DNA of 63,584 bases from an uncultured Clostridia bacterium (GTDB lineage: Bacteria > Bacillota > Clostridia > Christensenellales > Borkfalkiaceae). Positions 53,336 through 60,170 of this stretch are shown here, in pieces (the first letter of the stretch is position 1; each line of letters begins with the position of its first letter). A program made the position numbers and the translations under genes. The notes beneath the pieces were generated by a model, which was given only the letters and a program-made list of their open reading frames with translations, searched no databases and was not told the DNA's origin. The stretch spans positions 1 to 63,584 of the forward strand of contig CALVYJ010000131.1 of NCBI GenBank assembly GCA_944372075.1, given 5' to 3'.

Positions 53336-55819
53336 TCATTTAATTTTTTTTACGGTATAACCAGCCTCTTCTACCGCATGAATCAAAACATCATCCGCGA
53401 CTTCCGTTTCAACCGTCGCACACTTCTTTTTCAAATCTACCGTTGCCGATACCCCATCAATCGCATTGAGCGCTTTTTCTACGCGCGCACTGCAATGACT
53501 GCAGCTCATACCTTCAATCATCATTATTTTTTTCGCCATACTATTTTTTTGCTCCTTTTTATTTTTATCCATGCGCTTCGATCGAAAACGCATCAGACGC
53601 AAAGCATTTGAAACGACAAAAACAGAACTTAAACTCATTGCCGCAGCGCCAAACATCGGGTTCAATACCACGCCAATCGGAAACAAAACCCCGGCAGCAA
53701 TCGGAATACAAAGCACGTTGTACAAAAATGCCCAAAATAAATTCTCATGAATATTGCGCACCGTCGCACCACTCAACCCGATCGCATCATTTAACGCACG
53801 CAAATCGCCTTGTACCAATACGATATCGGCAGAATCAATCGCAATATCCGTACCGTTTCCCATTGCGACGCCGATATCAGCCTCCTTTAATGCCGGCGAA
53901 TCGTTTATTCCGTCCCCCACCATCGCCGTTATACCGTCATTTTTACAAGCTATAACAGCCTGCAACTTATCTTCCGGCATGACGTCCGAAAATACTTGTG
54001 TAATTCCGACCTCGTTCGCAATAGCTTGCGCAGCGCCCTTACTGTCCCCGGTAATCATGATGGTCTCTATGCCCTTTCTTTTTAAGTCCGCTACAGCCTC
54101 TTTACTGCCTTCTTTTAATGTATCCGCAACAGCGATCATGCCGATCAATTTATCTTCGACACATACGAATAAAACAGTATTTCCCGCGCTCTCCCACTCT
54201 GTATCTAAACCCTCACACACCTTGTCGGATACTCCGTTGGCTTCCAACAAGCGCTTATTGCCGATTAAAACCAAACGGCCATCCCATTCTGCTTCCGCAC
54301 CCATGCCGCTCTTATATTGGAATTTTGATACAACTATTGCCGAAACACCTTCAACTTTCGCTTGCTCTACGATACATTCAGCCAACGGATGATTCGAGTT
54401 GATCTCCATACCCGCAGCGATACTCATCACAAGTTCTTGAGAATACCCGTAAAATGTTGCGACCTTTTGTACGCGCGGTTTTCCTTCCGTAATGGTCGCC
54501 GTTTTATCGAGAAGAACTGTGCGTATGTCTTTTGATTTCTGCAGCGCTTCCGCATCTTTATAGAGTATTCCCAAAGATGCGCCTCGGCCGGTGGCCGCCA
54601 TTACCGCAACCGGCGTAGCCAACCCTAAAGCACACGGACACGAAATCACCAAAACACTGATCGCCATACTGAGCACTTCAAAGAAATACACGTCAGCCGT
54701 TTTTGTCGCCCAAATGATCAGCCAAACAATAAAATCAATTGCGGCAAGAAGCAATACGCTCGGAACAAATATCGCGGCAACCTTATCAACCGTCCGCTCA
54801 ATCGGCGCCTTGGACGTTCCGGCTGATTGCACGAGCTGAATTATCTTCGACAAAACCGTGTTTTCTCCCACTTTCTCCGCACGTACGCGAAGAACGTTTC
54901 CCTTATTGATCGATGCACTTGTAACAAAATCCCCAACGCCGACCTCAACCGGTAAACTTTCTCCGCTGATTGCCGAACGATCGACAAATGAATTCCCCTG
55001 TACGATCTTTCCGTCTGCAGGTATGCTGTCTCCCTGCTTCACCACGACGATCTCACCTACTTGTAATTCTTTCAACGGTTTTACCGTCTGCACCCCGTCG
55101 CACTCAACGGTAACAGATTCCGGAGATAATCGATACAATTTTTCTATTTCTTCGCCTGTTTTCTTTTTCGAACGAGATTCCAACCACTTTCCCAGCGTTA
55201 CAAGCGTTAAAACCATAGCCGCCGATTCAAAAAATAAATAGCGCATAGCAAACGCCATGGCATCATCTTTTGTAGGCAATAAAAACATGACGACCAAACT
55301 GTATAGATACGCTACAGCGCTCCCCAAACTAACCAGGCTATCCATATTCGGGACCCGCTTCACAAGAGCCTTAACTCCGCTGATAAAAAATGCCCGGTTA
55401 ATAAATAAAACAGGCGTCGTTAAAATACATTCAACCAGCGCAAAATTTGATGCTATTTTCAATATGCCCGGCAAAGGTGCGCCCAACATGTGCCCCATCG
55501 TGAAATATAATAACGGAATCAAAAAACATATCGATGCTATAAATCGGTTGCGCAATGCCTTGCTCGCATCGCTTTTCTCTTCAACACCTTCTCTTGTTTC
55601 CGACTTATCCTCCCAAAGCGTTGCCCCATAGCCGAGAGTCTTTACCATTTCTATGATCTCTTGCGCCCCGATCTTCGCTTCATCGTATTCCGCAGTCATC
55701 CGCTCCCCCATTAAGCTGACTTCCGCCTTATTAACTCCGTCCATCCGCGAAATCGTCTTTTGAATACCCGCCGAACACGCTGCGCACGTCATTCCCGTTA
55801 TTTTGAAAACTTGTTTCAT
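53336..55819 (-). CDS. copA: copper-translocating P1B-type ATPase
   Basis: N-terminal GMTCAAC, CPCALGLATP, HP, GDGINDSP, YN and M..SS Cu+ ligands, C-terminal GMSCSHC domain. Confidence 0.93.
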   Translation of the reverse strand: MKQVFKITGMTCAACSAGIQKTISRMDGVNKAEVSLMGERMTAEYDEAKIGAQEIIEMVKTLGYGATLWEDKSETREGVEEKSDASKALRNRFIASICFLIPLLYFTMGHMLGAPLPGILKIASNFALVECILTTPVLFINRAFFISGVKALVKRVPNMDSLVSLGSAVAYLYSLVVMFLLPTKDDAMAFAMRYLFFESAAMVLTLVTLGKWLESRSKKKTGEEIEKLYRLSPESVTVECDGVQTVKPLKELQVGEIVVVKQGDSIPADGKIVQGNSFVDRSAISGESLPVEVGVGDFVTSASINKGNVLRVRAEKVGENTVLSKIIQLVQSAGTSKAPIERTVDKVAAIFVPSVLLLAAIDFIVWLIIWATKTADVYFFEVLSMAISVLVISCPCALGLATPVAVMAATGRGASLGILYKDAEALQKSKDIRTVLLDKTATITEGKPRVQKVATFYGYSQELVMSIAAGMEINSNHPLAECIVEQAKVEGVSAIVVSKFQYKSGMGAEAEWDGRLVLIGNKRLLEANGVSDKVCEGLDTEWESAGNTVLFVCVEDKLIGMIAVADTLKEGSKEAVADLKRKGIETIMITGDSKGAAQAIANEVGITQVFSDVMPEDKLQAVIACKNDGITAMVGDGINDSPALKEADIGVAMGNGTDIAIDSADIVLVQGDLRALNDAIGLSGATVRNIHENLFWAFLYNVLCIPIAAGVLFPIGVVLNPMFGAAAMSLSSVFVVSNALRLMRFRSKRMDKNKKEQKNSMAKKIMMIEGMSCSHCSARVEKALNAIDGVSATVDLKKKCATVETEVADDVLIHAVEEAGYTVKKIK

Positions 55820-55831
55820 TTCATCTCCATA

Positions 55832-55885
55832 AATTGCAACTATATTGGTTGCAATTATTATAAACGATTTTAGCATCAATGTCAA
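55832..55885 (-). promoter_or_regulatory. consensus sigA promoter of copA with a downstream operator-like inverted repeat
   Basis: TTGACA-N17-TATAAT (55885-55857); AATTGCAAC-N7-GTTGCAATT at 55832-55856. Confidence 0.8.
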
Positions 55886-56667: not shown

Positions 56668-58020
56668 TTATTCCTGTTTTTGACCAGCGCCGCTGACAAA
56701 AAATTGATGATAAATTGCGCGCACACATTTTTCGTAATCTTCATTGTCAATGCCGACAATAATGTTCATTTCGCTTGAACCCTGATCGATCATACGCACA
56801 TTGATACCGGCTTCCGATAAAGCGCCGAACAACCGTGCAGACGTACCGATACTGGAAGCCATACCGTGTCCGACCGTTGCAACAAGCGCTATATTTTCTA
56901 AAACACGAATATAGTCGGGAGAAACGCTTGCCCGAATTTCCTCCAATAGTTGATCCAAAACGCCGTCAGACAAATAGCGACTCTCTATGACCAATGACAA
57001 TGTATCAATTCCGGAAGGCATATGTTCAAAACAAATCCGATGATTTTCTAATACGCTCAATACTTTTCGTGCAAAGCCGATTTCCGCGTTCATCATGGAT
57101 TTTTCCAAAAATATAACCGTAAAATCTTTCTTTCCCGCTATGCCTGTTACGATATTTCCTTGAGCGACATATTTTTTAGAAGGCAAAATCAGCGTTCCAG
57201 CATCCATAGGCCGAAACGTATTTTTAATTTTAATCGGAATATCCCCTTTTCTTACAGGGAAAATAGAATCAGCATGAAGCACGTTGGCTCCCATGTAGGA
57301 AAGCTCACGCAGCTCTTTGAACGAGATCACTTCGATCTTTTGCGGATTGTTCACGATGCGAGGATCGCACGCAAGAAATCCGCTGACGTCCGTCCAATTC
57401 TCATATACTTCCGCATTCATGGCGCGCGCAACAATCGAACCGCTTATATCCGAACCGCCGCGCGAAAATGTTTTAATATTCCCCTGTGCGTCTGTTCCAT
57501 AAAAACCGGGAATGACCGCATCTCCGCTGTCTTGTAAAGCCTGCTCTATGGCCGCATACGAGCGTTTTTCATCAAACGCACCTTTTTCGTCAAAAAATAT
57601 AATATCTTTCGCATCGATAAACGCGCGCCCCAGCTTTGCCGCAATGATCCGCGCATTCAAATATTCGCCGCGCGAAGCTGTAAAATCCGCGCTTTTACGC
57701 TCGTCGATTTCTTGTTCCGTTGCATCTAAAATGGATTTAATGTCGAATGAATCCATCCCCAACTCTTCTACAATCGACGTAAACCGTTTGCGAATTTTAG
57801 CAAAGGTCTGCGAACAATCACCACCCTCCTGCGCTTCGCGATAGCAAGCATACAACAAGTCGGTAACCTTTATATCCCCGGAATATCGTTTTCCGGGTGC
57901 GGATACTACTACATATTTACGAGCCGGATTTGCATTTAATATTTCGCAAACCCGCATAATATTGGTTCCGTCCGCCAATGACGATCCGCCAAATTTACAA
58001 ACAACAGGTTTCATTTTCAT
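56668..58020 (-). CDS. lysC: aspartate kinase
   Basis: KFGGSSLA, VVSAPG, SRGE, TFSRGGSD, WTDV, two ACT domains. Confidence 0.93.
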   Translation of the reverse strand: MKMKPVVCKFGGSSLADGTNIMRVCEILNANPARKYVVVSAPGKRYSGDIKVTDLLYACYREAQEGGDCSQTFAKIRKRFTSIVEELGMDSFDIKSILDATEQEIDERKSADFTASRGEYLNARIIAAKLGRAFIDAKDIIFFDEKGAFDEKRSYAAIEQALQDSGDAVIPGFYGTDAQGNIKTFSRGGSDISGSIVARAMNAEVYENWTDVSGFLACDPRIVNNPQKIEVISFKELRELSYMGANVLHADSIFPVRKGDIPIKIKNTFRPMDAGTLILPSKKYVAQGNIVTGIAGKKDFTVIFLEKSMMNAEIGFARKVLSVLENHRICFEHMPSGIDTLSLVIESRYLSDGVLDQLLEEIRASVSPDYIRVLENIALVATVGHGMASSIGTSARLFGALSEAGINVRMIDQGSSEMNIIVGIDNEDYEKCVRAIYHQFFVSGAGQKQE

Positions 58021-59207
58021 CGAATCTCCTTGCCTTCGATATAATATCTCTTTTCTTCGCTTTCCCCCATCGAAAAAGTCTTGCGAGGCAAACTGCCATA
58101 CTTCAAAACTTGTGCAAATAATTGAGCTTTATCCATTTTCGGCAATGCTATTCCGACATAATCCGCATTTTCAAGCGTCAGATCGAGCAACGCAGCTTCG
58201 CCGTGTATGTAATCGACACTCCCGCCGTACGCAACAAGATATTCCGCAATGTATTCATCCGTTTGCCGAACCGCTTTCGCCACATCTTTCGGCAAAGCGA
58301 TCGGTTTTGCTTTGCCCCCATAATATATGGCGCCAATCCCGTCGCCGTCATTGGAGAATCTTTGCAAAAAATTCTTACCGTCGATTCCTTTTATAATGCG
58401 ATGAATCCCCTCAAACCGTATCCCCGGATCATAAATATTCACCGCTTCAACCAGAGCATATCGCGCAGGATGCGTTGCCTGCTCATCCTTTGACAATGTC
58501 TTCTTTATCTGCTCCCACGATGCCTTCGCCGTTGCCAATGAATGATTCCCGTCCCCGACCATAAACAATACGCCGTCCTTTTTTAAGCGCTCGAATCGCT
58601 CAATTATCGGTCGATAATCGGAAACAAAATAGCCGGTTACATGCCCGCCCCCCATATTCAAATCAAAATCATATACCCGGTTTAGATCTTCGATCTTAAT
58701 CTTCCCCAATACATCATTTTGTGGATCATCGTACAACAACATTATATGCGGAAACTCGATTTCTGCCTGCTCGCGTATTTTCAGCCGAGGCGGAATCCTC
58801 TGCAAAATTGTCTCTTCCGTCGCTCGAACCGCGCATCTTGCTCCTTGTTCATACGAATATTCTTCCAGATCAATCGACAGTACGAGCCCTTTGCGCATAG
58901 GAGAATACGGCGTCCTTCGCTCCACCAATATAAACCCTCGCGGTAATTTTCGAAATATCCCCTCACGTTTATAGTCACGCATGGTTTGCGAAATTTTTTT
59001 GATCCTATCTTCGCATCCCGGTTGATCCAAATAAATTTCCGGCAATGTAAGCCGAAGCGTCGAAGGCTTATTGCCAACGACACCCTCCAGCTTGTCCCAA
59101 TACTTCGCGTCCGACGTGTGCTGATCGCAAGCAATCACCGCCCAAGCCGACATGTCAACCGAAACATCCGGTAAAATAATTTCGGGAGCAACTATGCAAC
59201 TGCTCAT
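58017..59207 (-). CDS. DUF1015-family protein
   Basis: WAVIACDQ.TS, RATE.T...R.PPR, GDGNHSLA, LPRKTFSMG. Confidence 0.75.
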   Translation of the reverse strand: MSSCIVAPEIILPDVSVDMSAWAVIACDQHTSDAKYWDKLEGVVGNKPSTLRLTLPEIYLDQPGCEDRIKKISQTMRDYKREGIFRKLPRGFILVERRTPYSPMRKGLVLSIDLEEYSYEQGARCAVRATEETILQRIPPRLKIREQAEIEFPHIMLLYDDPQNDVLGKIKIEDLNRVYDFDLNMGGGHVTGYFVSDYRPIIERFERLKKDGVLFMVGDGNHSLATAKASWEQIKKTLSKDEQATHPARYALVEAVNIYDPGIRFEGIHRIIKGIDGKNFLQRFSNDGDGIGAIYYGGKAKPIALPKDVAKAVRQTDEYIAEYLVAYGGSVDYIHGEAALLDLTLENADYVGIALPKMDKAQLFAQVLKYGSLPRKTFSMGESEEKRYYIEGKEIR

Positions 59208-59229: not shown

Positions 59230-59349
59230 TTAACCGCCGTAATTGATTACTATAAACACAAATAAAGCGAGAGCAATCGCTAACAATTTAATGGGTACGT
59301 TATCAATAAAAATTCCGGCAACTTTTCGCCAAAAGCTCTTTTCTCTCAT
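59230..59349 (-). CDS. 39-aa CdaR/YbbR-like membrane microprotein (TM anchor only)
   Basis: Manual translation MREKSFWRKVAGIFIDNVPIKLLAIALALFVFIVINYGG*; ATGA overlap with the cdaA stop; N...K + hydrophobic helix resembles the CdaR N-terminus. Confidence 0.7.
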   Translation of the reverse strand: MREKSFWRKVAGIFIDNVPIKLLAIALALFVFIVINYGG

Positions 59350-60170
59350 ATGTGTTTTCTCCCTTCCCCGGATAAATCTTTCCAATAATATTCGGTGAGC
59401 GTCTTTTTTAACAAATCATAATCCGCATAACGGGAAATCTTCCCCTTTTGCGCTATGGTAATGATACCTGTTTCCTCTGAAACAATCAACGCTATCACGT
59501 TGGACGTTTCCGTGATGCCGATGCCAGCACGGTGCCGCGTCCCTAATTCTTTCGGTATATTTACGTTTTGCGTCAACGGCAAAAAGCATCCTGCGGCTTG
59601 AATTTTGTAATTGTTTATGATCATCGCGCCGTCATGCAATGGCGCTTTAACAAAAAAGATTCCTTCGATCAATTGCGAAGATATGTTTGCATCCAAAATT
59701 ACGCCGCTCTCCAATACTTGAGCCGGTATGTTATCGTTGGATAAAATTATTAAGGCGCCGATATTATCTTTCGACAAATTCTGCAATGCTCGAATAATTT
59801 CAGAAATATATCGCTCCACCTCGTCTTTCGTCGCATAAACAGGATGCTCTCGCTTTTCAGATAATCGGTTGAGTGTGTTCAAATTCAAAATATCACGTTT
59901 CACTTCCACGTTAAAAATAACAAGAATCAACCCCGCAAGCACCAACGGGATCACCATAAACACATCGCCTTTCAAATTCACGTCGGATGCAAAAATAATT
60001 CCCGTAACAATAATAAATAAAGCAAATACGACAATAACGCTACGAACATTATTCATTTTCAAAACGCGAAAAACGTAATAAAACACCGCAGCAAACAATA
60101 TGATCAACAGAACATCTACCGTGCGAAAACTCGCAAATGCTTTTTCAACGTTATCGATTATTTCCTGCAT
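59346..60170 (-). CDS. cdaA: diadenylate cyclase CdaA/DacA
   Basis: 3 N-terminal TM, GALI, PLHDGA, LGTRHRA, VSEETG. Confidence 0.95.
   Translation of the reverse strand: MQEIIDNVEKAFASFRTVDVLLIILFAAVFYYVFRVLKMNNVRSVIVVFALFIIVTGIIFASDVNLKGDVFMVIPLVLAGLILVIFNVEVKRDILNLNTLNRLSEKREHPVYATKDEVERYISEIIRALQNLSKDNIGALIILSNDNIPAQVLESGVILDANISSQLIEGIFFVKAPLHDGAMIINNYKIQAAGCFLPLTQNVNIPKELGTRHRAGIGITETSNVIALIVSEETGIITIAQKGKISRYADYDLLKKTLTEYYWKDLSGEGRKHI

Follow-up and report, generated by a model that had tools for sequence, protein, structure and literature searches.

The gene for the membrane diadenylate cyclase CdaA in the window (here the whole stretch of 63,584 nucleotides that was analysed) is directly followed by a very short open reading frame, which raises the question of whether that frame is a gene at all and, if it is, how it relates to CdaR, the regulator encoded directly behind cdaA in Bacillus subtilis. 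Translation of 59349..59230 on the minus strand gives MREKSFWRKVAGIFIDNVPIKLLAIALALFVFIVINYGG*, 39 residues followed by a TAA stop; the plus strand over 59230..59349 is interrupted by stops. The start codon lies in an ATGA overlap with the stop of cdaA (59346..59349, minus strand), and a Shine-Dalgarno-like GGGAGA (59358..59363, minus strand) stands 8 nt before the ATG, within the G-R-K codons of the cdaA tail. The genus was represented by 23 loci, namely this genome and the 22 of 24 relatives with a cdaA match. All 23 carry an ORF of 37-39 residues in the same place, at offset -4 in 21 and at -1 (TAATG) in two. The upstream regions read GGGAGG at the Shine-Dalgarno-like site in 20 of the 23, a conservation that is not independent proof of use, because the site doubles as CdaA codons.

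In the AlphaFold2 model (mean pLDDT 79), the peptide forms two helices, at residues 4-16 and 18-37. The first is basic and amphipathic, with a hydrophobic moment of up to 0.64 over residues 4-14; a kink at N17-V18-P19 leads into the second, hydrophobic helix, and the chain ends in GG at the stop. The first-pass annotation had described a 39-residue ORF overlapping the cdaA stop, with a basic N-terminus, a single membrane helix, and the next gene beginning 22 nt later, and the minus-strand translation, the model, and the start of that next gene at 59207 agree with it on each point. Its proposal of translational coupling to cdaA stands as far as the overlap seen here, but such coupling is not universal: among the first 73 helix-only ORFs collected, 40 start at offset -1, -4 or -8, and the others range from -14 to +80.

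A Pfam scan of the 39-residue peptide returned zero matches, and the sole NCBIfam match, to MscL, is a chance one far below cut-off. ORFs of this kind are rare in the genome, where an ATG-started hydrophobic ORF of 30-70 residues follows the end of a long ORF in 9 of 2243 cases, the small gene included. This rarity, the retention of the ORF in all 23 genus loci, and the pattern of change by codon position (33 of 34 third positions vary within the genus, and 8 of 34 second positions) confirm that the small ORF is more than chance. Nor do gene callers pass it by, as had been supposed: the exact peptide sequence is present on 34 contigs in a public protein collection, in a 30-member cluster whose best label is "hypothetical protein". 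A scan for promoters and terminators around the small gene found no strong site. Elsewhere in the window, a perfect (12/12) sigma-70-type promoter match lies at 55857-55885 on the minus strand, at the start of an ORF (53336-55885) encoding an 849-residue protein resembling heavy-metal P-type ATPases. One metatranscriptome run yielded a 229-nt contig across 59106-59334 (one difference, depth 2.5) and another contig within cdaA. The contig over the small gene was discounted as evidence of transcription, because no strand is given, an origin from DNA is possible, and a run that is probably DNA holds a contig with the identical start.

The upstream partner is intact. A single match to a cdaA query was found in this genome, the 274-residue product of 59346..60170 (minus strand), which scores 133 bits against Pfam DAC and 179.9 bits against TIGR00159, the best family for CdaA, slightly short of the 188.8 cut-off. 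It joins a hydrophobic N-terminal domain to a DAC domain with intact HDGA and RHR motifs, and H179, D180, G181, R212, H213, and R214 are invariant across 78 aligned CdaA sequences. The closest named CdaA proteins, at 75-84% identity, belong to Candidatus Borkfalkia species of the order Christensenellales. With these catalytic motifs, a PgpH-type 7TM-HD protein, and TrkA_C domains all encoded in the genome, the c-di-AMP pathway looks live.

Downstream, the first-pass annotation had taken the order cdaA-cdaR-glmM as its frame of reference, and the locus departs from it. In the slot occupied by glmM in model Bacillota, the third gene of the operon encodes a 396-residue DUF1015 protein (58017..59207, minus strand; PF06245, 193 bits) whose start lies 22 nt past the stop of the small gene. 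Its stop is overlapped by an aspartate kinase gene (56668..58020, minus strand; NF006540, 540 bits, above cut-off), which from the gene spacing is likely on the same transcript. The best glmM match (TIGR01455) is on another contig, C94, with 441 bits, below the 447.55 cut-off. A DUF1015 gene follows cdaA, or cdaA plus the small gene, in most of loci L001-L120, in both helix-only families and families that have no such small gene (called gene-less here), often with an overlap; none was seen behind a full-length cdaR, in fetched stretches too short to reach the gene behind a long cdaR.

Selection on the small gene was assessed from pooled pairwise comparisons of codons 3-36 across the 23 genus loci, the values being uncorrected and the pairs non-independent. 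With pS at 0.75 and pN at 0.11, pN/pS is 0.15, against 0.25 for cdaA at the same loci and 0.35-4.8 for the five other frames of the small gene. By this pattern of substitution, the small ORF is a coding sequence under selection. In eight other genera the uncorrected ratio is higher, 0.35-0.71 with pS close to saturation, a range that points to weaker constraint there or to a freer N-terminus. The first-pass annotation had proposed a search behind cdaA in related genomes and dN/dS as checks; across the family, 113 of the 117 loci have the small gene. The reading as a recent pseudogene remnant, which that annotation had tied to full-length cdaR genes in close relatives, is rejected: none of the 117 family loci has one in that slot, and the ratio within the genus is that of a constrained gene.

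The arrangement might instead serve a need of translation, with the ORF acting as a spacer that hands ribosomes on from cdaA to the genes for DUF1015 and aspartate kinase, and the peptide itself hardly mattering. Close spacing at both ends, relaxed sequence in several genera, and repeated loss of the gene would suit such a role. Within the genus, however, amino acid constraint on the small gene exceeds that on cdaA, and in the wider collection of 132 short forms about 130 retain the hydrophobic helix with A24 and A28. The small gene is moreover kept where no DUF1015 gene stands behind it (for example, L033, L041, L057, and L062), and lineages lacking the gene have cdaA coupled directly to DUF1015. 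A mere spacer is highly improbable.

If the peptide is what is selected, its origin can be sought in CdaR. Taken alone, the peptide of 59230..59349 scores 4.9 bits against an HMM built from the N-termini of 31 full-length CdaR proteins, a score that 22 of the 1184 membrane segments used as controls and 13-16 of 1000 shuffles also reach; it is weak by itself, and homology therefore rests on the family level. Against the same HMM, 27 of 50 short peptides from outside the genus outscore all 1184 controls. Profile-profile comparison of 38 short peptides with nine CdaR N-termini, a check proposed in the first-pass annotation, aligned 30 columns with a probability of 92% and an E-value of 5e-7. As the least biased test of descent, a profile was built from 58 short peptides alone and used to search 1.84 billion cluster representatives, of which 230 matched at E<=1e-3. 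Among the 148 new matches listed, 135 are no longer than 70 residues, some of which may be contig-end fragments. Ten of the 13 longer matches were scanned for families: YbbR (PF07949) was over the cut-off in two and just under it in one, six had no family, and one was an unrelated repeat protein. At the family level, these profile matches show the small gene to be, by descent, the membrane anchor of CdaR without its YbbR domains. This is the identity first proposed for it, and it agrees with the stop after residue 39 and with a search of the genome itself for YbbR, which found none (0/1).

A PDB search with CdaR N-termini gave chance matches only, to a viral membrane helix (E 0.03-0.2). One outlying match of 70 residues, P0166, was followed up and dropped, as it led merely to a 134-residue CdaR (L158). 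The L158 frame is itself of intermediate length: on a GC-rich metagenome contig (L158:2000-2400), a CdaR-like ORF whose outer part is a single short domain lies between cdaA and a glmM-like gene.

The distribution of the short form was taken from the DNA behind cdaA at 190 loci and one stray, picked for genera and families before their downstream content was seen; five locus labels made by script were reset by hand. Of the 117 family loci, 113 have a short one-helix ORF of 30-68 residues behind cdaA, the other four have no such ORF, and none has a long cdaR. Six further families of the order have the short form in all 19 loci read, nine other families are gene-less in all 23, and twenty families have a CdaR of 320-450 residues behind cdaA in all 31, with a YbbR domain in each of the five long proteins scanned. 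Short forms span 30-68 residues, and 99 of 132 measure 34-39. The family loci without the small gene (L047, L048, L049, and L201) are apparently separate later losses; in L047 and L048, aspartate kinase lies directly behind cdaA. YbbR was detected in one of 201 family genomes, where it shares a small contig with another cdaA, a distant one; that bin is 6% contaminated. PF07949 overlooked four long CdaR-like ORFs elsewhere, so the stop codons that were read are firmer evidence for missing YbbR than is the model.

A quick maximum-likelihood tree of CdaA (113 rows after 18 near-identical genus rows were omitted, midpoint root) sets all 32 full-length rows apart, at a support of 100, from the other 81, which are short or gene-less; the gene-less label requires three changes on it. 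This sampled tree shows a single old origin of the helix-only form. Because a full CdaR is the norm in the class (137 of 161 genomes), we infer that this origin was one old truncation; the simplest history would be that truncation followed by several complete losses. Outside the order, no helix-only form was found in 15 Clostridia genomes negative for YbbR and positive for DAC: six have no partner for CdaA, four have a long CdaR-like protein, and five have likely CdaA-CdaR fusions. Two further YbbR-negative genomes outside the order are without DAC. Inside the order, family f31, with genomes of 0.8-1.0 Mb (G246, G275, and four more), gave no cdaA match in any of the six, and DAC is absent in the two checked; c-di-AMP synthesis has possibly been lost there.

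Loss of the cell wall was considered as a cause of the reduction and rejected, since the genome encodes two transpeptidases, four Mur ligases, one SEDS protein, and one MraY-family gene. It also retains an MreB/Mbl-family gene. A draw of 151 genomes from the order has YbbR in 72 and MreC in 73, with both in 70. The helix-only and gene-less clade gave no MreC match and has mostly one SEDS protein, and the full-CdaR families have MreC and mostly two or three SEDS proteins; elongation machinery was likely lost on the same branch as the CdaR reduction. A rule by which MreC loss entails CdaR loss was rejected. The association covers one branch only, and outside the order YbbR is present in eight of nine MreC-negative genomes, the ninth having a likely fusion. 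Because other members of the class without MreC have kept CdaR, the coincidence reads as genome reduction along one shared branch and not as cause.

What the short forms have kept is one face of the helix, on which positions 14, 17, 21, 24, and 28 all lie. Position 24 is Ala or Ser in all 31 full CdaR sequences and in 130 of 132 short forms, and position 28 is Ala, Ser, or Gly in 30 of 31 and 128 of 132. K21 is kept in 73 and N17 in 68 of the 132 short forms. The Trp near the outer end of the helix, invariant in full CdaR (31/31), is mostly gone. Within the first helix of the partner, CdaA, position 31 holds Tyr or Phe in 29 of 31 full-CdaR loci (the other two are gaps), 117 of 132 short-form loci, and 3 of 27 gene-less loci, a signal noticed post hoc that comes mostly from one gene-less clade of 23 rows. 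E89 and R92 follow a similar pattern. Covariation of K21 with Y31 is not significant over independent pairs (median p 0.5). Mean identity in the CdaA membrane domain (residues 10-95, L001-L130) is 0.24 for short-form, 0.25 for gene-less, and 0.49 for full-CdaR loci; for the DAC domain the corresponding values are 0.63, 0.61, and 0.56. Membrane motifs such as KG at 47-48, G78, and P88 are lost in helix-only and gene-less loci alike. The equal divergence of the membrane domain in short-form and gene-less loci counts against a tight ancestral interface.

Faces of the small-xxx-small type also drive homo-dimerisation, and the peptide might in principle bind itself, a PgpH-type phosphodiesterase, or a division protein. 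The 7TM-HD protein encoded in this genome offers one such candidate, and a preprint on Streptococcus pneumoniae describes a two-hybrid signal between CdaR and Pde1 and possible CdaA-independent roles (bioRxiv 10.64898/2026.09.06.749708). Against a partner other than CdaA, the small gene is directly behind cdaA in 132 of 132 loci, that slot being the only one searched, and likely CdaA-CdaR fusions occur in other Clostridia. We rate this reading as very unlikely.

We lean slightly toward the peptide being a permanent small subunit of CdaA, by which c-di-AMP output would be fixed, and probably supported, without sensing of the cell wall. CdaR is described as exposing its YbbR domains outside the cell and as contacting CdaA through membrane helices (PMC10243994, PMC10636490), with the first CdaA helix a predicted contact (PMC10243994), and a preprint credits Brogan 2025 with wall sensing through the outer disordered region of CdaR (bioRxiv 10.64898/2026.09.06.749708). 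From the loss of the outer part and the retention of the small-residue packing face, we infer a constitutive CdaA subunit. The peptide would insert with its N-terminus inside and its C-terminus outside, to judge from the basic N-terminus and the precedent of CdaR. Its amphipathic helix would sit on the inner leaflet, and the small-residue face N17-K21-A24-A28 would pack against the CdaA membrane helices. CdaA would thereby be held at a fixed level of c-di-AMP synthesis with no input from an outer sensor. The gene is dispensable, being absent in 27 loci.

The direction of its effect is a separate matter. Reviews give both activation and inhibition as effects of CdaR on CdaA (PMC10117814, PMC10636490, PMC13508791). 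Inhibition is tabulated for Listeria monocytogenes and Staphylococcus aureus assays (PMC10117814, Table 1) and is also described by that source for assays with E. coli and Listeria. B. subtilis has less c-di-AMP when cdaR is lost (PMC13046274), and CdaR depletion in S. pneumoniae at first resembles CdaA depletion (bioRxiv 10.64898/2026.09.06.749708). The helix could also be a CdaA-bound brake that dampens synthesis, which a full CdaR lifts through its outer domains. The inhibition assays favour this, GlmM, a known inhibitor, is gone from the operon, and the conserved face is compatible with either direction; the B. subtilis and S. pneumoniae results run the other way, and on balance a brake seems unlikely.

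A peptide built of an amphipathic helix and a kinked membrane helix could also act as a membrane sensor, responding to tension, thickness, or lipid charge. The amphipathic helix 4-16 stands ahead of the kink, N-termini are basic throughout the family, and osmolyte uptake is under c-di-AMP control (PMC11686323). Yet conservation is lowest in the N-terminal part, which in several genera is polar and not obviously amphipathic, and the segment is present in full CdaR too and so need not be a new sensor. We consider sensing of this kind quite unlikely.

A broader proposal can be framed, for and against which we find the case evenly balanced: YbbR may be a detachable sensor and the helix the working core of CdaR, a small-genome clade of Christensenellales may have run on a subunit of 30-50 residues since its origin, and the same cut-back may have arisen independently in other phyla. 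A natural helix-only form under selection shows that this segment does useful work when the outer domains are missing. We found no published description of a natural helix-only CdaR, in a searched literature that mostly excludes subscription papers, primary CdaR studies among them, and the claim made here goes no further than a known regulator in reduced form. The helix-only form defines a microprotein family so far without a name, whose 230 cluster-level matches are mostly short and filed as hypothetical. The order also supplies ready-made reagents, namely CdaA enzymes whose cognate partner is full-length, has 39 residues, or is absent. If the helix is indeed the core, this trio would allow helix allostery to be told apart from wall sensing and could decide whether CdaR by default activates or inhibits.

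Among known systems, KdpF, AcrZ, and MgrB are small single-helix membrane regulators of enzymes or transporters. As those proteins are commonly described, the peptide resembles them in having 30-50 residues and one helix and in being encoded next to a larger membrane protein or working on one. It differs in origin, being the cut-back of a larger regulator, and the Pfam and NCBIfam scans found no sequence link to them.

CdaA-CdaR fusions, described for streptococcal strains (PMC10243994), share with it a CdaR helix tied to CdaA, which the fusions achieve physically; unlike the free peptide here, which ends at the membrane, they keep a long C-terminal part. Five frames of 501-542 residues from three other Clostridia families (L223, L224, L225, L235, and L236), in which a DAC domain runs into a hydrophobic segment, are likely fusions of this type. 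The segment in L223 reads like the CdaR helix, and a glmM-like ORF lies behind two of the five frames.

The closest relative is CdaR (YbbR) itself, as known from B. subtilis, L. monocytogenes, S. aureus, and S. pneumoniae. Like it, the small gene stands directly behind cdaA with an overlapping start, and with the full CdaR proteins of its own order it shares the basic N-terminus, the single membrane helix, and the pattern N-x3-K-x2-A-x3-A. Unlike it, the product has 39 residues against 320-450, lacks both YbbR (PF07949) and the outer disordered tail, and has mostly lost the W-x-Y/F-V end of the helix; its operon also departs from the cdaA-cdaR-glmM module in that DUF1015 replaces glmM. By the YbbR domains that define CdaR it is not a member of that family; it is a CdaR-derived microprotein that likely works like the CdaR anchor.
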